From positions 1 to 40,178 of IMG/VR virus record IMGVR_UViG_3300034136_000001: a DNA stretch of 40,178 bases; one strand, 5' to 3'. Below, one piece after another: positions 128-35,482 of this stretch. The translations under genes were made by a program, and so were the position numbers. The notes under the pieces were generated by a model. That model was not told where the DNA came from and did not search any database. It saw nothing but the letters and a program-made list of their open reading frames with translations. Within the stretch, counting starts at the first letter, position 1, and each line of letters begins with the position of its first letter. This DNA comes from a virus.

Positions 128-3100
128 AAATGGAACTTGCTACTGACAAAAAGGCCCTAGAGGTTGCCGATTGGAACACCGGGCCAGGCAAGACTATTGC
201 CAAAGCGTCAGCCAATATTATCCCTATTGACGGAGCCGCGAAGTTGCTTAAAGTCACAAAAGCAGCCAAAGCAGGGAGGATGAGCAAAGTCGCCGGTGTA
301 GCGGATGAAGTGCCAATTAACACGGCTCCTGGAGTGAAATCGGTTAATCCGACCCGCGAGGCTGACGCAGCGGCGCAGATCGACGCCGAAGTAGCTGCCT
401 TACCGCCAGCCCCACAGATGGACCCCGTACTGAGACAACAGGCCGCTCTTGAAACTATGCGGGCCGAGAGTCCTGCTGCCGGTAGTCTGCGTAAAGTTAC
501 CCCGCCTGCCGAGCCAGTCCCCGGCCAAGTTCCTATTCGGCCGCTTCCAGAGCAACAGCCCGGCATCGTTACTCGGCCGCCCGAAGATTTGGGTACGCCT
601 GCATATCAGGCCCGTCCTGCTATGGTTGCCGCCCAGACTGCCGCCGACGATGCCGCTATTGCTGCCCAACGCCAGCCCTTTGACCCGCTCGACGCTCCAG
701 CCTATCAGCGCCGGGGGATTGAACTCGACCAAAATCCAGAGGTCATTATTGATGGTTTACGCAATAACGCTACCGCTTTTACCCGTGACCCTGATTTTGC
801 CGAAGTTGTCCAGGAGGCATACCTCCAGACCGGCTCGAATAACCCGCTGTCACTTGCCGCCGCCGCACTATCCCGCACCCAAGACAAGGGCCGGGTTCGA
901 GCCATTGTCGAGCGTCTTGTCCCCGGAGTTGATGGCAACGCGCTGAACCGTGCCGTTAACCAAATTACCGGCGCTGATGACCAGACTGACGTATTGGAAG
1001 CTTTGCAAACGGCCGCCACTCGCATCCGCCGTGACGAACCGTTTGGTCCTGTCTCCGACGCTCCCGCACCTCGTCCATTAGAAGCGGGAGCCGAGCCTGT
1101 TCCAGCCACCCCTGTTATACCTGATACTGCCGAACTGCCGACCCCTGTTGCACAAGTTGGCGCGGAGCCTACTAATACTCCGAGGGGAGAAGTCGGCCAA
1201 GTTAAAGAGGTGACAGTTGTTCCGGGCGCAGAGAAAAATCCTTATGTTCCGGCGTCATTTAGTGGACCTCTAACAAAGGTAGAAAAACCTAGTATGGTTA
1301 AAGTTACCGATAATCCAGCCACTACAAATGAGGTTGCGCCTGCCAAGTCGATAGCCGACAAGCCATTAGCGAAAACTCCACAAAAATACCTTGTGCCTGC
1401 AAAGATTACAGCTCCCGCCAAGTCTGGCGAGATCGGTAAGTCGCAGGGCAAATATGCCAAAGGCCAGGAATATGAAAAGACTAGTGTAGAAGCTACTCGT
1501 AAGCGTGGCTCCGATGAGGCCGCCAATACTTCTTATGATGATTTTGTTAAAAAGGTCGAGGGTGCTGATGGTATGGTCGGCAAGGACCGTGACACCGCTG
1601 TTGCTCTCCAGGCCCGCCACAAACCCGGTTCACTAGAGCATCGCAAGCTTGGTGATCTCATTAACAAATATCACACTGAGGCGGCTCAGACGCTCGGCAC
1701 TATCGAACGTACCCTCCGCAAGACGGCTGACGCCAACCGGCTAACTGATAATTTTGTCAACAAGCTCTACCGTAGTACCGATGAGACTATCGCTATCAGC
1801 GATTCCGATTTTGATAAGGTTATTGCCCGAAATGAGGCATTTGTTAAGGCCCGCGATAATCAAAATGCCGCTGTTGAGGCGTTCAATTCAAACCCGACAG
1901 CAGCAAACGCTGATCGCGTGGCCGACGCATTTAAAAAAGTTGATGAGGCCGACCGCGCCGCTAAGTTCGAGGAATATAAGACTGCCGCCAAGATTGTTGG
2001 CAAATCTAAAAATCCAACCGCCAAAACTCTTGTTAGCAAATTAGAGCGTGACGCTGGTGTTTACACGATGGATTGGGTAGACAGCTCTATGCTCTCTAGC
2101 ACCCGCGTAATGATAAACAACTTCCTGAACACGCTGGGTGTTCGGGGAGAGGAAGCTATGTTTGGCAAGGCTGGTGCGGCAATCGCACGAAAGCTTACTG
2201 GCACGAACATCGGCGGCGGTTCGCATAAGGGAGCCAAGCTAGGTGCGGAACTCGGTACTCGCCACTGGAAATCTGACGCGGCGCTCCGTCAAGGCGCACA
2301 AGGCAACAAATTGGTTAAATCTATTAAGAACTTTACGACGACTGGAAACACCGTCGGCGACCGCAACACCTACGCTGCGGCTTACTCTGGCGTGTTTGAC
2401 CATTACAAAATCAAACTTAAAGGGGAGGGTTACAAAGGCGATGAGCTTAACCGCCGCGCTATGGTCAACTCTCTTACCGACCCCGATGACATAGCTTATG
2501 ACTACATGAACCAGGCACTTGCCAATAACGCCATGTCCTCAATCGTGCATGGTCCGACCGGAGGTAAAATCGAAACCCAGATCGCTGACATGATAGCTAC
2601 GGCGACAGGGAATAGTACGGCCATGAAAGTCGCTGCTAAAGCTGTTACCCGTGTGACGCTAGGGTTCCCGACCGTTATTACGCGCAGTTTAATTCAAGGC
2701 ACAAAACGGACATCGCTTGGTGGCATATCGACCATCCAAGCCGTTAAGAATGTAGTCACGAAAGGACCAAAGGAGCTTACTGCCCGGCATATCAAAAATG
2801 CCGTTAAAGAGGCTGGCTCCGGCGCGGTTATGTATTCTGTGGGAGCTGGACTTGGCTCGGCCGGTCTAATTAACGGCGGCTACCCGACCGAAAAGGCCGA
2901 GCAGGAGCGCTGGAAGCGGGAGGGTATTACTGAAAACTCAATCAGGATAGGCGACGATTACTATAGCTTGCCGGCTGCCTTGGGCGTATTTGCGCTACCA
3001 TTTATGATCGGAGCCAACGCCGCCCAGAATGTCCGTGAGGGCAAGGCGATTACTGATGATTTCTTAAGAGATACCGCCGAAACTATCGTTAATTCCATGC

Positions 3101-4218
3101 CTATTGATAGCCTCCAGCGGACGCTGGATATGGCAGTCGATTTCGAGCGCGGCCGGGATGTCACCAAGCCGGCTGTTCAGACTGCCTCTAGTCTTGCTCG
3201 GTCTGTAACACCTCTCGGCTCGTTACTCAACCAAGTTGCCAAGATGTTCGACCCGAACGCCAATGACACTACGCAGGGTGACGCAATGGCACAGTTCTTA
3301 GCTAAAATCCAAGATGGTATCCCCGGCCTGGCAAATGATTTGCCCGACAAGACTGTTGCCGGTAAACCCGTTAAAAACCCCGGTGCGATACCTCGGTTGT
3401 TTGGTGCTATGAGTACGTCGCAAAAAGAGGGAGTCGAGAGAACCGCTGAAATCAAGCAAGAGGGGGCAGACCAAGCCTCCAAACTTAAGGAAACGGGCGT
3501 GTTCAAGGATAAACTCCGCAATATACTTGATGACGACACTAAGGAGATTTTCGATAAAGCTAAAAGCGGTGGCGAGGTCAGTCCCGACGACATGAAGAAA
3601 TTGCAGTCGGGCCTCACTAAAGGCGTCACTGAAACCGAGGACACCCGATATCTTGAAGATGGCGACCATGACACAAATCTTGCTGTTTTAAGGGCCAAAA
3701 AGTCAATCCTGGAGGCCGAGCCGACTACCCGCAAAGAAACCCTCGCCGCCTATGACGAACAGATTACGCGTGGTGAAATTTACAAGGAGCAGAAAACTAA
3801 ATATGAAACCGTTAAAAAATATAAAGATATCTCCTTGGAGGAGTGGAGAGCATTGGGCGACCCGGACAGCGATGACCACGACCCTGATCTGTACGAAACA
3901 CTGTTTGATCTCGACGCCGCCATGACCGATAAAGGCGTCTCCCGTCGCAGTAGTGACAAAACTAAGCCCAAGTATTACGCCAAGACTACTAAATCTGGTA
4001 GCGGTGGCGGTGGTCGCAAATCTGCCGCTGACAAGGCTGCCGACGCCGCGCTTCGTAAAATCCAGTCGAATACCGTTAGCGGCGTCCCCGACCTCAAGAG
4101 AGTGGACCTGTCCGATCTGCGCCCCCAGAAACTCCAGAGCGCACAAATCCCGAAAATCCAGCAGATAAAGTCGAGCGATTTAATCAAGAAACGAAAGATT
4201 ACCGTTTCTAAAGCATAA
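1..4218 (+). CDS. Giant virion protein, main part. It continues ORF 39623..40178 across the circular junction and is about 1548 aa when joined. Putative internal, ejection or tape-measure-like protein.
   Basis: Frame 1 is open from base 1 (IGAAKVTKNK...) to the TAA at 4216-4218, so the Met at 130 in the ORF track is internal. The same frame is open from ATG 39623 into the duplicated 127 bp. The protein is rich in Ala, Pro, Gln and Lys and has hydrophobic Gly-rich segments (AVMYSVGAGLGSAGLINGG, LGVFALPFMIGANAA). Function is inferred from size and position only. Confidence 0.6.
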   Translation: MGAAKVTKNKVAENNAAKTQGNLEQWSDNYSNFVKPVTEPLKKMELATDKKALEVADWNTGPGKTIAKASANIIPIDGAAKLLKVTKAAKAGRMSKVAGVADEVPINTAPGVKSVNPTREADAAAQIDAEVAALPPAPQMDPVLRQQAALETMRAESPAAGSLRKVTPPAEPVPGQVPIRPLPEQQPGIVTRPPEDLGTPAYQARPAMVAAQTAADDAAIAAQRQPFDPLDAPAYQRRGIELDQNPEVIIDGLRNNATAFTRDPDFAEVVQEAYLQTGSNNPLSLAAAALSRTQDKGRVRAIVERLVPGVDGNALNRAVNQITGADDQTDVLEALQTAATRIRRDEPFGPVSDAPAPRPLEAGAEPVPATPVIPDTAELPTPVAQVGAEPTNTPRGEVGQVKEVTVVPGAEKNPYVPASFSGPLTKVEKPSMVKVTDNPATTNEVAPAKSIADKPLAKTPQKYLVPAKITAPAKSGEIGKSQGKYAKGQEYEKTSVEATRKRGSDEAANTSYDDFVKKVEGADGMVGKDRDTAVALQARHKPGSLEHRKLGDLINKYHTEAAQTLGTIERTLRKTADANRLTDNFVNKLYRSTDETIAISDSDFDKVIARNEAFVKARDNQNAAVEAFNSNPTAANADRVADAFKKVDEADRAAKFEEYKTAAKIVGKSKNPTAKTLVSKLERDAGVYTMDWVDSSMLSSTRVMINNFLNTLGVRGEEAMFGKAGAAIARKLTGTNIGGGSHKGAKLGAELGTRHWKSDAALRQGAQGNKLVKSIKNFTTTGNTVGDRNTYAAAYSGVFDHYKIKLKGEGYKGDELNRRAMVNSLTDPDDIAYDYMNQALANNAMSSIVHGPTGGKIETQIADMIATATGNSTAMKVAAKAVTRVTLGFPTVITRSLIQGTKRTSLGGISTIQAVKNVVTKGPKELTARHIKNAVKEAGSGAVMYSVGAGLGSAGLINGGYPTEKAEQERWKREGITENSIRIGDDYYSLPAALGVFALPFMIGANAAQNVREGKAITDDFLRDTAETIVNSMPIDSLQRTLDMAVDFERGRDVTKPAVQTASSLARSVTPLGSLLNQVAKMFDPNANDTTQGDAMAQFLAKIQDGIPGLANDLPDKTVAGKPVKNPGAIPRLFGAMSTSQKEGVERTAEIKQEGADQASKLKETGVFKDKLRNILDDDTKEIFDKAKSGGEVSPDDMKKLQSGLTKGVTETEDTRYLEDGDHDTNLAVLRAKKSILEAEPTTRKETLAAYDEQITRGEIYKEQKTKYETVKKYKDISLEEWRALGDPDSDDHDPDLYETLFDLDAAMTDKGVSRRSSDKTKPKYYAKTTKSGSGGGGRKSAADKAADAALRKIQSNTVSGVPDLKRVDLSDLRPQKLQSAQIPKIQQIKSSDLIKKRKITVSKA

Positions 4219-11233: not shown

Positions 11234-11548
11234 ATGGCACAAGACGACAAGAAAACCACTGACCAGAGTAATAGTGCTGATAAAAACACGCCTACCAGGG
11301 GTGCGAATGAAAGCGTTACTAATACCACCACTGTTACTGAACAGCCCGGCCAAACCAATCAAGCTGAAAAGCGCGGCGAAGTCGTTATTGACGAGAACAA
11401 AGACGCTCATGTTCTCAAAGAACAATCAAGCGAGGAGCGCTTAGAGGATGCCCGCCAAGAGGGTCTGCGAAATCACGAAGTTGAACATGCGAATGATGAG
11501 CAGACAAATCAGGGCGACCCAACTAGCCGCGATAAGCAAGCGGAGTAG
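11234..11548 (+). CDS. Highly charged, probably disordered small protein
   Basis: A 104-aa ORF with RBS AAGGAG. It is rich in Asp, Glu, Lys, Gln, Asn and Thr and has no hydrophobic core. Its 3' end overlaps the convergent terminase gene by 26 nt. Confidence 0.5.
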   Translation: MAQDDKKTTDQSNSADKNTPTRGANESVTNTTTVTEQPGQTNQAEKRGEVVIDENKDAHVLKEQSSEERLEDARQEGLRNHEVEHANDEQTNQGDPTSRDKQAE

Positions 11549-12887
11549 TAACTAGATCACCCTCATAAGTGGCTTGTACCCGTTCAGGGGAGTAGGAATA
11601 CTCCCCTGTTCTTTCGTCAAAATCCTGCTCGATAGCAGCATAGACGTAGCGCACCGCGTCGGCCGCATGGGAATTGGTGTCGTGCTGCGGACCCTGGTAA
11701 TCGCCAGTTAGCGGATTGAACTTACGCTTATACATCATCAATTTGCGTCGTAGATCAACAGTGGTCGCGGCGTTGTAGGTGGTTTTAATCGTGCGTTCAA
11801 TGGCTCGTTTGATACTGTCCTCTTTACTCTCGCGCCGGAGCAGACTGGAATTAATCAAACCGAGATCATGGGCTTTATTGATGCGGGCAATGGCGTCACT
11901 GTCACGGACGCTACCATCGTGCGGGAGGAAATGCCAGGCCATGTTGTACGGTTTTGACATGACGAACTTTATGATTGCCTCATCGCCTACGTCCGGTGTT
12001 TCGTGGTAGTCGATTATATGTATCATGCCTTGATAATACTGGAAGAATACGATAGCCGTGCTGTCGGCTCCGCCACCAAGGTCCCAGGCGGTGTAAGCCG
12101 GGAAATCAGGGTTGTACGCGAACTCGCCAATGCGCCCTTGCTCTTTGGCTAATTGGAGAGCCGCACCGTAATAGCTGGTACTGGACGCCTGGCCGAAGTC
12201 ACACATGTATTCTTGTCGGTAGAAGAAATCATTACCGTTTTCGCGGATTGCCTCCTCACGGGCCTCCTCTAGCTCGGCCGCCGTCAGGTAGCGGTCGGCA
12301 GTAATCAGACTAGCGAACTGTGTCTTTTTGCCGCTAGACCAGTTGAGTAAGGCGTTGTTATAAATGATCTCGAACGTGCCACCAGAGATACCATCAATTT
12401 TTGGCGTAGATTGAATGATAATCTGACCCTTGTTAGCGCGGACAATCGGGCGAATAACCTTAAGCGCACCATAGGGGATATCGACGAACTCAGAGAAGAT
12501 GTAGATTTTGCCGTTCGCACCACGGAGGCTGTCCGGCTCGGAGGCCCCTAGCAGCATAAGCGTGGAGCCGTTCTTGAGGGTGATGTGCATATCGGTCGGG
12601 CTGTTTGTCCGCTGGGCGATCAGGGATTTCGGGATACTATCCAGAATCGGCCGCCCGTCATTGTCGATAGCGGTCCAGAAGTTGTCATATCCCTGCCGCT
12701 TGGTCGGCCACACAATGACCACGTTTATTGGTGTTTCTACCATCTTCTTGACCGCATAGGAGAAGCAAGTAAAGTCCTTGCCGGCACGTCGCGCCCAACA
12801 AAAAACAGCTAAACTAACCCCGCCATCGAGGGCCGCTAGACCCTCTGCTTGGTAGTCGCGGGCGGTGAAATTAAGAGGAACCTGCAT
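11523..12887 (-). CDS. terL: Terminase large subunit
   Basis: A 454-aa ORF. It has an N-terminal ATPase signature (FCWARRAGKDFT, a Walker A-like RRxGK) and a C-terminal nuclease-like region (TAWDLGGGADSTAIVFF ... HDTNSHAADAVRY). It is the only minus-strand gene inside the structural block. Confidence 0.85.
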   Translation of the reverse strand: MQVPLNFTARDYQAEGLAALDGGVSLAVFCWARRAGKDFTCFSYAVKKMVETPINVVIVWPTKRQGYDNFWTAIDNDGRPILDSIPKSLIAQRTNSPTDMHITLKNGSTLMLLGASEPDSLRGANGKIYIFSEFVDIPYGALKVIRPIVRANKGQIIIQSTPKIDGISGGTFEIIYNNALLNWSSGKKTQFASLITADRYLTAAELEEAREEAIRENGNDFFYRQEYMCDFGQASSTSYYGAALQLAKEQGRIGEFAYNPDFPAYTAWDLGGGADSTAIVFFQYYQGMIHIIDYHETPDVGDEAIIKFVMSKPYNMAWHFLPHDGSVRDSDAIARINKAHDLGLINSSLLRRESKEDSIKRAIERTIKTTYNAATTVDLRRKLMMYKRKFNPLTGDYQGPQHDTNSHAADAVRYVYAAIEQDFDERTGEYSYSPERVQATYEGDLVTTPLAYRG

Positions 12888-22641: not shown

Positions 22642-22830
22642 ATGCATATCCAGAGCAATATATTAACTTTTTATGAGGATATGGGCGGTAATCCCGTACA
22701 ATTCCCTGATGGGACCTATAAAATTAGAATCGAATATGACCCGACACCGTTTGGCAATCAGTGGAAAATCCGCTGTTATGACAAAAAGGGCAATCGACTT
22801 GATAGCTTGAAGTTTGCAACTGAGGAATAG
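22642..22830 (+). CDS. Hypothetical 62-aa protein in a moron-like standalone transcription unit
   Basis: It has its own -10 element, its own RBS and a strong terminator 40 nt downstream. Confidence 0.5.
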   Translation: MHIQSNILTFYEDMGGNPVQFPDGTYKIRIEYDPTPFGNQWKIRCYDKKGNRLDSLKFATEE

Positions 22831-22871
22831 TGATATAATAAAAACGCACTTTGAGATGCCGATCAAGCACC

Positions 22872-22901
22872 AAAAAAGCACCCACGACAGGTGCTTTTTT
22901 T
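22872..22901. terminator. Bidirectional intrinsic terminator
   Basis: AAAAAA-GCACC-cacgaca-GGTGC-TTTTTTT. It sits where plus-strand late transcription and the minus-strand RNA operon converge. Confidence 0.8.
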
Positions 22902-22977
22902 GGTTGCGGGTCGCGGATTTCAACCGACGTTACTCCAACTTATGAGATTGGCGAGATTAGCATACCTCCCACCCGCA
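22901..22977 (-). tRNA. tRNA-Met(CAT)-like gene with a non-canonical T arm
   Basis: The minus strand gives 77 nt with acceptor TGCGGGT/ACCCGCA (7 bp), D stem GAGG/TCTC, anticodon stem CCAAT/GTTGG and loop CTCATAA (anticodon CAT). The 3' ACCA is encoded. However, the T loop is TTGAAAT (G at position 56), the T stem has only 3 clean pairs, and the D loop TATGCTAA lacks GG. Confidence 0.55.
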
Positions 22978-22982
22978 TAGAC

Positions 22983-23027
22983 GGCCCTGGCAGGGTTTCC
23001 CCTGCACTCGGCGTCCCTCAGAGGGCC
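22983..23027 (-). ncRNA. Structured spacer between the two tRNA-like genes, containing a GNRA-capped hairpin
   Basis: On the minus strand an outer helix GGCCCT/AGGGCC encloses GCAGGG-GAAA-CCCTGC, a 6-bp stem with a GAAA tetraloop. Confidence 0.4.
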
Positions 23028-23033
23028 ATATAG

Positions 23034-23149
23034 TACCAGTGGCGGGACTCGAACCCGCGTGAGCCTTGCAAAGCTCCCTGCCCGGCGACTAGTACACCGG
23101 GGCTGACGGCCCCCCTAGCAAGGGCGCTCGGCCACTGAGCTACACTGGC
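23034..23149 (-). tRNA. tRNA-like gene with canonical acceptor, D and T arms but 48 nt in place of the anticodon loop
   Basis: Read on the minus strand: acceptor GCCAGTG/CACTGGT, D arm GCTC-AGTGGCC-GAGC, T arm GCGGG-TTCGAGT-CCCGC, and variable region CTCAC. CCTTGC and GCAAGG, at the anticodon-stem position, are separated by 48 nt, which contains the hairpin CCCGGTG-UACUAGU-CGCCGGG. No CCA is encoded. Confidence 0.5.
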
Positions 23150-23160
23150 ATAGACGACTA

Positions 23161-23330
23161 TGGCAATGTTGGCGGCGCTATGAAGCTTACATTTCTTTCC
23201 TTTGGTACTTTCCGCCGGAACATTGAACGTCATTCTGCCTTTGGTAGTACCGGACTTGCACCGCTATCCTCCACAGGGGGTCTTTTGGTAATCCACAACC
23301 CCCAACGCTGGGCGACGTTACCGCCAACAC
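23161..23330 (-). ncRNA. Unclassified structured RNA candidate of about 170 nt, the first element of the RNA operon
   Basis: It starts 5 nt after a minus-strand TATAAT. A 10-bp closing helix forms between GUGUUGGCGG (23330-23321) and CCGCCAACAU (23175-23166), including a G-U pair that is possible only on the minus strand. It ends in UUGCCA. Internal hairpins include GGGGG...CCCCC and a T-arm-like CGG-UGCAAGU-CCG. No convincing ORF is present. Confidence 0.4.
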
Positions 23331-23334
23331 TGGT

Positions 23335-23340
23335 ATTATA
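23335..23340 (-). promoter_or_regulatory. TATAAT -10 element on the minus strand, heading the RNA operon
   Basis: The reverse complement of 23335-23340 is TATAAT. The upstream -35 region is weak (ACTAAT or TACTAA). Confidence 0.4.
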
Positions 23341-23439
23341 TCTAATCTTTTCTTTCGATTAGTAGAGTTACCCCGATAACTATAATTAGACATATAATCA
23401 TAGCGCCCGTCGAGGAAGCGGTGTTGGTAACTTCTTCCA

Positions 23440-24219
23440 TTAGTAGAGCCTCTTTTGGTACTTGCTCTGGAAGTTATACACCTCCTCGATTGAGCGCAGG
23501 CAGCCGCGTAACGACGCCTGTGGGCGCAGTAAATCGCGGGCGCTTTCATGCTCCAGTTTAGCCATGAATATATGGTAATCGAAGTCAGGGTTACTAGAGA
23601 ACAATTGCTTAAATGCGTTTGCCATCGGCGAGTTCATCTTGACGTGCGTTCGAGTGATTATAGAATCAAGCTGTTGCAGCCATTTGCGTGATTTTTCCAG
23701 ATCATCTATCTCAAAGTCGCCACGCCGGAAATCCAGCTCGATATTGCCGCCACGCTTGCCGACCAGGTAGAGCCGCAAAATGCTTGGGGCGATACGGTGG
23801 AACTCACTGTGCAACCGGACGAATGTTTTGTAGTCCTCTCGGCCGCTATCGGCATAGCTGCGGGCGAAGTCCATGAGTGTCCAGCGTTTCTGGGTCGTGT
23901 TAAGGCTCCTGGTGTCGTCCAGAGCAATTCCGGGCGTCAATATGTAATAGAGCGGTACGCCAAGCTCCTGTGCGGCCATATGACGGTGCTGGCCGTCGAT
24001 AATGTAGTAGTGTTCATTAACCGATATCGGATTAGTTGCCAGCAAATGCGGGTTGGCTTTCATTTCAGCCTTAAGCCGTTTGACATGGTTATAGTCAATA
24101 GGGCGGTTGCCGCCCATCAGCTTGAACATGGCATATATAGTAGTAACTTCGATTTTTGGCGGTACGATACCGCTAGTGGTTGTTGTTTTGGTGGTGATTG
24201 GGGCCTGTGTTCCCATCAT
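23440..24219 (-). CDS. ParB-like nuclease-domain protein
   Basis: A 259-aa ORF with RBS AGGAAG. It contains the ParB/Srx-type N-terminal domain motif YYIIDGQHRHMAAQELG, preceded by GGNRPIDYNHVKRL. Confidence 0.7.
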   Translation of the reverse strand: MMGTQAPITTKTTTTSGIVPPKIEVTTIYAMFKLMGGNRPIDYNHVKRLKAEMKANPHLLATNPISVNEHYYIIDGQHRHMAAQELGVPLYYILTPGIALDDTRSLNTTQKRWTLMDFARSYADSGREDYKTFVRLHSEFHRIAPSILRLYLVGKRGGNIELDFRRGDFEIDDLEKSRKWLQQLDSIITRTHVKMNSPMANAFKQLFSSNPDFDYHIFMAKLEHESARDLLRPQASLRGCLRSIEEVYNFQSKYQKRLY

Positions 24220-33740: not shown

Positions 33741-33968
33741 ATGGCTACGGAAACACTCCCTGAATGGGCGAAAAATCTAAAAAAGCTGCGCGTCGAGAAT
33801 GACTATACGCAGAAGAGTTTCGGGGCAAAGTTCGGGGTGTCGAAGATGACGGTCAGCCGATGGGAGGCTGGAGAGAATGAGCCGCCAGTACCAGTTTTGG
33901 CGTGGATACTGGAGGCCAGCGGGACTATTAGCGCCGGGATATTCTTTAAGGACGGTGTGGAGATATGA
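33741..33968 (+). CDS. XRE-family helix-turn-helix regulator (Cro/CI-like)
   Basis: The sequence LKKLRVENDYTQKSFGAKFGVSKMTVSRWEAGENEP is a classic HTH_3 pattern. I prefer the ATG at 33741 to the TTG at 33720 in the ORF track. Confidence 0.75.
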   Translation: MATETLPEWAKNLKKLRVENDYTQKSFGAKFGVSKMTVSRWEAGENEPPVPVLAWILEASGTISAGIFFKDGVEI

Positions 33969-35482
33969 GCGTTAATGGAGAAGTAGTCCCGATAGACGAC
34001 CCGGATAAGCCAAAGAAATCGGTAGTCCAGGTACGGGCTGAGATCGTCCAACGTGAGTGGCCGTTTATCAGTTTTCGCGGGCAGGCGATGGTTAAAATTC
34101 AGGAGCCGTTCCCGCATTGGGTTCCACTATACAAAGACAGGTTCGAGCGACTGGCATACCCGCTGCTGGGTGGGCCGACCCGTGGCCAGGTGGCTGACGC
34201 CTACGCGTATGTGGAGAATACCGCGCCGGACAAGTCAGAGTTCGACTACCTGATTATGTTTGGGGCTGAACAGCCCACTGACGAGCAGTTGCTCGCGCCC
34301 GGCCTGCCCGCCAAGCCGCAGATTTGGAACACCCGCGAGCTGTGCTGGGACCCGGCCGCCGACCCGGACGACTGCGTGTGGCGTTCGCCGTACCCGCCCA
34401 TACCGGCCAAGCACCAAGCAGATCGGCTGGAGTTCGTGATGCAGCTCGCCGGTCACGACGAGGGCGTGTATGACGATATTATGCAATCAATCGCACCTAT
34501 TGTCATGGAGAAGAAGCCGGACGGCGCGATCTGGTGGGTCGGCGATGGGGCGAACGGTAAGAGTACGCTGATGGACGCGCTGTACCGGATTTTCCCGGAC
34601 CAGCTCGCCAGTCTGACTGTTAAGGCATTAGTCGATGAGCGTGATACGCCCTTGTTAAATGGCCAATTGGCAAACATCGTGCGAGAGAGTTCTGAGGGCC
34701 GTATCGAGGACACAATGGTGTATAAGGCCATCGGTACACATGAGAACTTCCGCACCCACAAGTTCCACTCACAGGAAACCTACGAAATCCGAGGTAATAT
34801 GCACCACATTTTCAGCGCCAATAATATCCCGCTGTTCGCTGACAAAGGCCACTCTGCTCGTCGCCGGACGTTTATCATCCCGTTCCGCCAACGCTTTGTG
34901 AGCGACCCGCTGTTTGAGGAAAAGACATTTACCCCGGAGTTCTTCGGCCGGCTCATTACTGAGATTTGCAAATATGCCAAACAGATCGAGCGCCAGGGCT
35001 ATAAATATAAGTGGTCGGCTATCACCTTGGCTGCCAAGTTGGAATATGATGAGAGTGTCAATACCGCCGAGGCATATGTCGCCGCCATGATCGAGGAGGG
35101 CATTGTAGCTTTCGACAATATCGGCTCGATTACCGACGACTATATCCGTTGGTGTAAAGAAACGGGCAACGAACCACTCCGCGCCGGGCATCTGAAAAAG
35201 GCACTCAAACCGCTCAGTTTTGAGCGCATATCGACGCGGCTACCGGGTAAGTCCGGCACTCCGAAAATCTATCGGCTACCCGGCCAGACATCAGAGCTGA
35301 TAACTGTCGGCCTCTGGCGCGACGGGCTATACACTACGCCAGGCTTCCAGCCAGCCGAGCCGCCCGCCGACATCGTGACCGTACCGGCTGATTTCACTCA
35401 GTCTGCCGGGGTGCAAGATAGAGAGCAAGATGGGGTGCAAGTCGAGCCAGAAAAAGTAACTATACTTGAGGGGAAATGGTAA
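33965..35482 (+). CDS. P4/D5-type superfamily 3 replicative helicase, a primase-helicase family NTPase
   Basis: A 505-aa ORF with an ATGA overlap with the HTH gene. Walker A reads WWVGDGANGKSTLMDAL, followed by a downstream helicase region. An N-terminal primase domain is not evident. Confidence 0.7.
   Translation: MSVNGEVVPIDDPDKPKKSVVQVRAEIVQREWPFISFRGQAMVKIQEPFPHWVPLYKDRFERLAYPLLGGPTRGQVADAYAYVENTAPDKSEFDYLIMFGAEQPTDEQLLAPGLPAKPQIWNTRELCWDPAADPDDCVWRSPYPPIPAKHQADRLEFVMQLAGHDEGVYDDIMQSIAPIVMEKKPDGAIWWVGDGANGKSTLMDALYRIFPDQLASLTVKALVDERDTPLLNGQLANIVRESSEGRIEDTMVYKAIGTHENFRTHKFHSQETYEIRGNMHHIFSANNIPLFADKGHSARRRTFIIPFRQRFVSDPLFEEKTFTPEFFGRLITEICKYAKQIERQGYKYKWSAITLAAKLEYDESVNTAEAYVAAMIEEGIVAFDNIGSITDDYIRWCKETGNEPLRAGHLKKALKPLSFERISTRLPGKSGTPKIYRLPGQTSELITVGLWRDGLYTTPGFQPAEPPADIVTVPADFTQSAGVQDREQDGVQVEPEKVTILEGKW

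Follow-up and report, generated by a model that had tools for sequence, protein, structure and literature searches.

The first 40,178 nucleotides (nt) of IMG/VR virus record IMGVR_UViG_3300034136_000001 (hereafter the window) were analysed, with attention to a 170-nt stretch of the minus strand, 23330 to 23161, which a preliminary description made from the letters alone had taken for an unclassified structured RNA driven by a TATAAT box. Domain searches of the open reading frames (ORFs) of the window showed a tailed-phage genome with few recognisable proteins. A SNF2 helicase, a Sak4-like annealase, a YqaJ exonuclease and a ParB-like protein are encoded leftward, and a tail fibre and an M23/amidase endolysin rightward. 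The leftward early operon and the lysis genes converge, and the RNA region occupies the gap left between them. There the stretch (element A) is preceded on its own strand by the ParB-like gene and a small ORF, and it is followed by three further elements, B, C and D, and by a terminator (Table 1). As judged from comparison with its relatives, the stretch is very probably a genuine structured RNA and represents an enlarged form of a small RNA that is conserved among uncultured phages and folds as a four-way junction.

Rfam 15 was searched with Infernal, at gathering thresholds over the window and at E ≤ 10 over 22700-23500. At gathering thresholds nothing in the window matched, and at E ≤ 10 there was no match to 23330-23166 on the minus strand. 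Nine relatives searched at gathering thresholds, and a minimal member searched at E ≤ 10, were likewise without a match. The family described here matches no Rfam 15 family, in agreement with the earlier failure to assign the stretch to a known class. Searches by blastn with the cluster, and likewise with two relatives, gave no match in 50,697 phage records, and no homologue from a cultured phage was found among the phages searched. An exact 27-mer and the single ParB protein, searched against IMG/VR, returned nothing; an identical Logan contig was found and added no information. For the ParB-like protein, 66 relatives of 40-69% identity were found and their loci fetched (loci are given as L numbers). 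An RNA with the same ends and internal motifs, and otherwise different in sequence, stands directly after the ParB-like gene in L002, L082, L163, L474, L475, L476 and L582, and among independently fetched relatives there are eight in which a ParB-like (DGQHR) gene immediately precedes the RNA. Members found through this gene are unbiased finds. Scans with DNA patterns gave L174, L175, L193, L232, L248, L251, L409, L416, L517, L549, L556 and L575, all from IMG/VR except one from GTDB. Two-motif patterns yield mostly chance matches, about 100 being expected, and pattern matches were kept only with a complementary terminal helix (P1) or a model score. The collection comprises 20 distinct sequences, namely the window copy and 19 in uncultured phage contigs. 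A second, unrelated phage lineage carries the RNA beside glycosyltransferase genes. The conservation that the preliminary description had proposed as a check was observed in related and unrelated phage contigs.

Common to the members is a four-way junction formed by a core of about 85 nt. P1, with the consensus YUGGCGG/YCGCCAR and 8 base pairs (bp), closes the molecule. A single nt, U or C (J1/2), separates it from P2a (AAC-N-N/N-N-GUU), which in most members is followed by a 4-5 nt, mostly A-rich bulge on the 3′ side (ACAG, AAAA, GCAA, AGAAA, AACAA or AAAUU, for example) and then by a variable hairpin, P2b; the bulge is not seen where the P2 hairpin is short, as in L517, L549, L575 and L082. 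P3 joins P2a with no linker. Its base reads CA(R)U/A(A)UG, its distal part varies, and in small members it is capped by GNRA or UUCG tetraloops. J3/4 has the consensus U-N-A and leads to P4, a 3-bp hairpin with a 4-nt loop that is enlarged in some members, to about 45 nt. One G (J4/1) then precedes the 3′ strand of P1, and the connectors J1/2, J2/3, J3/4 and J4/1 therefore measure 1, 0, 3 and 1 nt. Invariant or nearly so are six P1 pairs (UGGCGG/YCGCCA), the U/C at J1/2, the AAC/GUU of P2, the base of P3 (C-G, A-U, R.A, U-A), the U-N-A of J3/4 and the G of J4/1. The three peripheral arms are free in sequence and take insertions of 5 to about 80 nt.

A covariance model built from six sequences, with the window left out (R1), matched the window at 23330-23165 over model positions 1-87 with 36.9 bits (E = 8.8e-7), placing 80 inserted nt in its P2 and giving its P3 a length of 26 nt. 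When 15 sequences were aligned, 98.1% of the cells paired and 15 of the 24 pairs were changed on both sides; none of 500 shuffles reached any of the measures, and slid partners paired at 25-57%. With 19 sequences and P3a included (alignment A7), 92.3% of the cells paired and 15 of 29 pairs were compensatory. In these 19 sequences all cells of P1 pair, two of its eight pairs being compensatory and four invariant, and this terminal helix is kept in 20/20 members. The fourth and fifth pairs of P2a covary across the family (GC/CG/UA/AU). At the base of P3, C-G, A-U and the R.A mismatch are each found in 19/19 sequences and U-A in 17/19, and the distal P3 pairs covary in the same alignment. All three pairs of P4 are compensatory, with 97.8% of the cells pairing. 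The check by covariation that had been suggested for the stretch thus came out positive, the helices covarying across the family. Moreover, minimum free energy (MFE) folds of two small members gave the four helices unaided. As to the strand, about 30 G.U cells would read A.C on the opposite one, and the opposite strand scored much lower. The single-sequence folding energy of the stretch is unremarkable (z = -1.7), and the case for structure comes from the comparison with relatives, not from thermodynamics.

Of the 20 members, none is larger than the window copy. Its P1 has 10 bp and is the helix that the preliminary description had drawn between the two ends; the G.U pair claimed for the minus strand only is also there. 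J3/4 is UAA, and a G precedes the P1 3′ strand. Where the window has a 71-nt insertion in the P2b loop, relatives carry 4-35 nt, and no long-insert member was found in the pattern scan of IMG/VR. The hairpins read earlier from GGGGG...CCCCC and CGG-UGCAAGU-CCG are present, but they lie in an insert that is absent from relatives and so have no comparative support. The hairpin GGCG-GUAACGU-CGCC was replaced, since the comparative data pair its AACGUC with the distant GACGUU of P2a instead. The distal part of P3 is expanded in the window and holds a second GGCGG and one UACCAAAGG. A mutually exclusive fold had been proposed on this GGCGG; the motif sits in the window-unique expansion of P3, where the alternative finds no comparative support. 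The family-constrained fold has -55.6 kcal/mol and the free MFE fold -59.7 kcal/mol, indicating a cost of only about 4 kcal/mol. The 9-mer UACCAAA(A/G)G was counted three times in the stretch, as had been stated (23199-23207, 23238-23246 and 23282-23290, minus), and all three copies fall in window-specific expansions of the RNA. Five copies occur in the 40-kb window against 0.55 expected, a number reached in 0/100 shuffles. The 10-mer GUUCCGGCGG lies within P3 in the window (23212-23221); in L163 (about 2405-2430) and L174 (about 2820-2845) it lies in the 3′ tail after P1 and could pair with the P1 3′ strand.

The TATAAT of the preliminary description was found where it had been placed. A TANNNT ends 4-8 nt upstream of the consensus P1 in 13/20 members, at 6 nt in nine of them, compared with 11.9% when positions in these loci are taken at random (binomial P = 3e-8, relatedness ignored). 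The hexamer reads TATAAT, TACAAT, TAACAT, TAAAAT, TAGAAT and others. This fixed distance suggests that transcription probably begins at the foot of P1 under the control of the RNA's own -10, which would make the RNA a primary transcript and an independent small RNA. After P1 the tail reads N1-2 and then C(C/U)A in 16/20 members. A trailing hairpin, P5, starts a few nt past P1 in 10/15 members examined and farther along the tail in L163, L174 and L474; its stems differ among members (CCAUAC/GUGUGG, CUACA/UGUAG, CUAAA/UUUAG and others). In relatives P5 is followed by an intrinsic terminator, which lies within 30-60 nt behind the RNA, and with fair confidence we infer that their RNA ends at P5 and this terminator as a discrete RNA of about 130-150 nt. 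The stretch had been described as ending in UUGCCA. Its CCAUAG is the 5′ strand of P5, so that the unit extends about 12 nt beyond 23161, and the 3′ strand of P5 forms the 5′ leader and the first base of the tRNA-like gene B. The central claim, an unclassified minus-strand structured RNA driven by TATAAT, is therefore supported, with its anatomy and 3′ boundary corrected.

In the ParB clade (L002, L082, L162, L163, L174, L474, L475, L476, L556), the intrinsic terminators behind the RNA or the ParB-like gene have loops that in nearly all cases contain UGCGAG, and P5 loops in the other clade contain GUGAG. Since the hairpins are otherwise unrelated, the retention of GYGAG in their loops hints that a factor may bind there.

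Table 1. Features of the RNA region and landmark genes, in coordinates of the window
Feature	Position	Strand	Remark
-10 hexamer TATAAT	23335..23340	minus	read in sequence; 5 nt upstream of first P1 nt
Four-way-junction small RNA, family core and insertions, P1 to P1′	23166..23330	minus	R1 match
P1 5′ strand GUGUUGGCGG	23321..23330	minus	pairs with 23175-23166
P1 3′ strand CCGCCAACAU	23166..23175	minus	pairs with 23330-23321
P2a 5′ strand AACGUC	23314..23319	minus	pairs with GACGUU 23231-23226
P2a 3′ strand GACGUU	23226..23231	minus	
P2b, GCC paired with GGC	23313-23311 / 23239-23237	minus	
3′ A-rich bulge of P2, AGAAU	23232..23236	minus	
71-nt lineage-specific insertion in P2b loop	23240..23310	minus	predicted fold only
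Hairpin H1, GGGGGUU/GACCCCC	23303-23297 / 23282-23276	minus	inside 71-nt insertion
Hairpin H2, tip CGG-UGCAAGU-CCG	about 23273-23242	minus	inside 71-nt insertion
P3	23190..23225	minus	conserved base CAAU/AAUG (C-G, A-U, A.A, U-A)
P4 hairpin GCU-UCAU-AGC	23177..23186	minus	
P5 trailing hairpin CAUAG-UCGU-CUAUG	23149..23162	minus	
B, tRNA-like RNA	23034..23149	minus	canonical acceptor, D and T arms; 47-nt branched insert replaces anticodon arm
C, 49-nt structured spacer	22981..23029	minus	helix AUGGCCCU/AGGGCCGU; hairpin GCAGGG-GAAA-CCCUGC
D, degenerate cloverleaf	22901..22976	minus	CUCAUAA loop (CAU anticodon), UUGAAAU 'T-loop', 3′ ACCA
Bidirectional intrinsic terminator closing the RNA cluster	22872..22900	minus	perfect 11-nt inverted repeat, flanking A and T runs
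Membrane-like ORF, 32 amino acids, 3′ of ParB-like gene	23342-23440	minus	stop codon 23344-23342
ParB-like gene, 259 amino acids	23440-24219	minus	
Terminase (large)	11523-12887	leftward	
Primase	33965-35482	rightward	

The position of the RNA in its host genomes was compared among the members. In relatives it always follows the final gene of its unit, 2-60 nt from the stop codon, on the same strand and ahead of the terminator in a convergent gap. The gene upstream varies by lineage (ParB-like, small membrane ORFs or one without known function), and no protein family common to the neighbourhoods of both clades was found. The close relatives L162, L164 and L478 have no RNA at the same locus, from which we infer that it is an accessory gene. 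L416 is JBPCJO010000084.1, a 33 kb phage-like contig binned in a metagenome-assembled genome (MAG) of Candidatus Saccharimonadales, and this binning, the only host hint for the phage group, points to Saccharimonadales. The layout of L416 is that of the window, with a ParB-like gene, a small ORF, TATAAT and the RNA in this order. A small hydrophobic ORF (32-59 amino acids) between the ParB-like gene and the RNA was also seen in L416, L475, L476 and L582; its stop codon overlaps the -10 hexamer of the RNA in the window and in L416.

Downstream of the stretch, B scored 40.3 bits (E = 5.8e-7) as a tRNA in Rfam, under lax filters only and missing at gathering thresholds; this was the only credible Rfam match at E ≤ 10 over 22700-23500. 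ARAGORN parsed B differently, as a dubious 'Pyl CUA' at 23125-23033. The source of this call is UACUAGU (CUA), displayed by one hairpin of the insert of B; the phage ORFs read normally in code 11, and amber recoding is not evident. The fold of C has -25.1 kcal/mol (z = -1.8), and no match to C was found, although no search aimed at its homologues was made. D was called neither by ARAGORN nor by Rfam at E ≤ 10. The 'tRNA operon' that the stretch was said to head thus stands in part: B scores as a tRNA, but its anticodon arm is replaced, and the last gene is called by neither tool. Among the members examined, a set that leaves out the five last found, no tRNA genes were detected near the RNA, and heading tRNA-like genes is a peculiarity of this phage. 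In the explanation that we favour, which as a whole we judge about as likely as not, the stretch comes first in a non-coding transcription unit made up of A, B, C, D and the terminator, with which the leftward early/replication operon ends.

The sequence G(U/C)CGUCUAU stands as a leader directly before B (23150-23158) and D (22977-22985) on the minus strand and may be a shared processing signal. A complementarity of 14 nt (13/14) was observed between the 5′ flank of A, AUAUAAUACCAGUG (23328-23341), and the 3′ end of B, CACUGGUACUAUAU (23028-23041), and A and B both start with AU(A/G)CCAGUGU. The complementarity and the shared start could reflect a long-range helix enclosing A and B in read-through transcripts, or the trace of a duplication. 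Elsewhere in the window, most large ORFs are without a Pfam match, for example a 1362-amino-acid protein at 130-4218, and the large terminase gene lies on the strand opposite to the structural genes around it.

Several known identities were tried for the stretch and rejected. ARAGORN and Rfam made no tRNA or tmRNA call over 23161-23330, there was no tRNA call in the relatives examined, and no tmRNA was found in the window. A minimal RNase P RNA was considered on the basis of AAGUCCGG, AGAAUGAC and CCGGC in P4-like order, with AACGUC/GACGUU as 'P2'. In bacterial RNase P, the P4 pseudoknot is formed by CR-I (GAGGAAAGUCC) and CR-V (ACAGAA-CCGGCUUA), and AAGUCCGG, AGAAUGAC and CCGGC look by eye like CR-I, CR-IV and CR-V. 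The comparison with relatives refuted this identity. AGAAUGACGUU is the P2 bulge and 3′ strand of the family and is also present in small members, the CR-I-like AAGUCCGG lies in the window-only insert, and the CR-IV-like AGAAUGAC is the P2 strand of the family. The RNase P families gave no match at E ≤ 10 over 22700-23500. Mimicry of 5S/16S rRNA had been prompted by GGCGG...CCGCC and GCGGUAA-ACG...GCGUU-AAU; R1 with filters off found nothing in the E. coli rrnB operon, the rRNA covered by this search (best full-length score 10.2 bits, best partial score 12.5 bits, antisense).

A role as RNA partner of the adjacent ParB-like (DGQHR) protein was rejected, because the second clade is without that gene and no neighbour family is shared. 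An integron attC-like site, a retron, an OMEGA RNA and an HDV-like or theta ribozyme (the latter for element C) were rejected for want of a matching architecture, partner gene or Rfam match. For retron, OMEGA (TnpB/IscB) and bridge RNAs, no domain of the partners, namely reverse transcriptase, TnpB/IscB and IS110 recombinase, was found in neighbours or in the window; integrase, RNA ligase, Ro-like and tRNA-processing proteins were likewise not detectable in the window. Hammerhead, twister, twister-sister, pistol, hatchet, hairpin and HDV-like ribozymes gave no cmscan match at E ≤ 10 over 22700-23500 or in the minimal member. A riboswitch does not fit the position of the RNA in relatives, which is after the last gene and before the terminator, with no same-strand gene downstream. 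A CCA-type 3′ end was also rejected, the CCA being paired inside P5.

We were then concerned with what such an RNA may do. The reading we prefer, to which we give a probability of roughly 35-40%, is that it acts in trans as a protein-binding decoy or scaffold. The combination of an invariant junction with dispensable, insertion-tolerant arms suggests that the junction is recognised by a macromolecule. In the mechanism proposed from these features, the small RNA would be transcribed independently, a protein would recognise the invariant junction, and the RNA would serve as scaffold or decoy for a host factor. The factor would probably be host-derived because no phage partner co-occurs with the RNA; no RNA-related enzyme is detectable in the window. 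Co-expression with tRNA-like RNAs here raises the possibility that the factor belongs to tRNA or translation metabolism.

Several points weigh against this chain of interpretation, from the fold to the function. The covariation alignments were fitted to the model and are thus biased toward structure, although the margin is large. Eleven of the 20 members were found by patterns requiring conserved motifs, so that ascertainment accounts for part of the apparent invariance of P1 and of the junction motifs. No match to a -35 element was found for the window promoter, which consists of the -10 consensus only; 7/20 members are without a -10 hexamer, and a number of copies may be cut out of transcripts that run on from the gene upstream. 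Finally, an invariant junction would fit a ribozyme or aptamer core equally.

A bolder reading is doubtful but may be stated. The family could represent a new functional class of phage RNA, either a junction-recognised decoy that neutralises a host enzyme of defence or processing acting on tRNA or other RNA, or a new small ribozyme or aptamer fold. It would be an accessory gene moving between unrelated phages, possibly of Saccharimonadales, and would here have become joined to two aberrant tRNA-like RNAs in an 'RNA island'.

The strongest competing explanation, which we nevertheless regard as unlikely, is a tRNA mimic, in which the RNA would stand in for a cloverleaf, with P1 as acceptor stem and the C(C/U)A tail matured in tRNA-like fashion, and would titrate or divert a host nuclease, modification enzyme or CCA-adding enzyme. 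Like tRNA (RF00005), the family has a four-helix cloverleaf with short connectors of tRNA-like length, a terminal helix of 7-10 bp and the N1-2 plus C(C/U)A tail of most members; in the window, moreover, it heads tRNA-like genes, and the tRNA-like B also has A-CUA after it. On the other hand, P2 is long and bulged and P3 and P4 are short or highly variable, and D-loop, T-loop and 7-nt anticodon loop are all lacking, with a P4 of 3 bp and a 4-nt loop or of about 45 nt and tetraloops on P3. Neither ARAGORN nor the Rfam tRNA model detects a tRNA in the members examined, the CYA is base-paired in P5 and not free, and the relatives examined have no nearby tRNA genes.

Somewhat less likely still is a cis-acting 3′ module of the early operon, whose junction and P5 would block 3′-5′ exonucleases or direct processing, and which would here also serve as leader for the maturation of the tRNA-like RNAs. 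The constant placement close behind the stop codon of the last gene of the unit, on its strand and before the terminator in a convergent gap, speaks for such a module, as do the members without a recognisable -10 and the complementarity of A and B, which would be present only in read-through transcripts. However, a simple stabiliser needs no invariant four-way junction, and terminator hairpins are already there; the -10 hexamer at a fixed distance in 13/20 members and the upstream gene differing by lineage also speak against it.

We consider it improbable that the junction is the catalytic core of a small ribozyme, which for example would free the downstream RNAs or trim the transcript by self-cleavage. 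Conserved junction nt, the R.A mismatch and the asymmetric bulge are set among covarying helices, a conservation pattern that resembles small ribozymes, and ribozymes are frequent in phage intergenic regions and tRNA clusters. With the hairpin and twister-sister ribozymes, the SAM-I aptamer and other small four-way-junction ribozymes and aptamers, the family shares a size of about 85 nt and a conserved core, junction or internal loop, among covarying helices. It differs from them in having no Rfam match at E ≤ 10 (window or minimal member), a position not that of a riboswitch and no recognisable catalytic-core motif. Six invariant P1 pairs would be unusual in a self-cleaver, and transcription starting at P1 would leave nothing upstream to cleave.

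A ligand-binding aptamer that gates the terminator, here by read-through into B-D, is slightly less probable again. The compact conserved junction with variable arms and the terminator 30-60 nt behind it in relatives would suit an aptamer, as would the second GGCGG of the window, L163 and L174, a potential competitor in pairing with the 3′ strand of P1. However, this competing GGCGG occurs in only 3/20 members, no conserved anti-terminator alternative was found, the terminators look bidirectional and constitutive, and the relatives have no downstream same-strand gene to be controlled.

Covariation alone cannot separate RNA from single-stranded DNA (ssDNA), and the element ends a replication/recombination block (YqaJ exonuclease, Sak4-like annealase, helicase, primase), so that an ssDNA structure, for example a priming or recombination signal of the replication module, was also considered; it is very improbable, given the framing by a fixed-distance -10 hexamer and an intrinsic terminator, the other lineage with its glycosyltransferase genes, and the GNRA and UUCG tetraloops on P3. 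A heterogeneous leader of tRNA-like genes, or a minimal RNase P RNA, to which the motif resemblance by eye and the modest fold z of -1.7 had pointed, has hardly any probability left and is refuted by the comparative data, the RNA being conserved and covarying in phages without tRNA genes.

Among known systems, the species 1 and 2 RNAs of phage T4 (rnaC and rnaD) resemble the decoy or scaffold candidate in setting: the annotation places these small, stable and structured RNAs, for which no function is known, in a phage tRNA cluster, co-transcribed with tRNAs. R1 reached at best 5.7 bits in the T4 tRNA/rnaC/rnaD region, showing no detectable similarity. The T4 RNAs stand at the 3′ end of their cluster, whereas the window RNA stands at the head; rnaC carries a canonical T-arm, GGGUUCGAAUCCC, whereas the new family has none; and the T4 RNAs are linked to a tRNA cluster, whereas the new family, among the members examined, has no tRNA genes outside the window. 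No description of the motif was found in literature searches. From IMG/VR, 10,006 unnamed candidate structured RNAs, some of them tRNA-like, have been reported (Fremin, Bhatt & Kyrpides 2023; PMC10690425). Like the present family, these are covarying, uncharacterised phage RNAs on IMG/VR contigs; the text of the article describes no such motif, and the family may be among the 10,006 candidates.

Few phage non-coding RNAs beyond tRNAs have a known function, and few have comparable comparative support. Genes for host takeover or counter-defence typically show the patchy accessory distribution, at the ends of early operons, that is seen here, which makes the RNA a candidate RNA-based effector. 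Its tolerance of insertions up to 80 nt marks the junction as the functional surface and the arms as natural tag sites. Moreover, the window copy is physically linked to a tRNA-like RNA that has a 47-nt branched insert where a tRNA has its anticodon arm.

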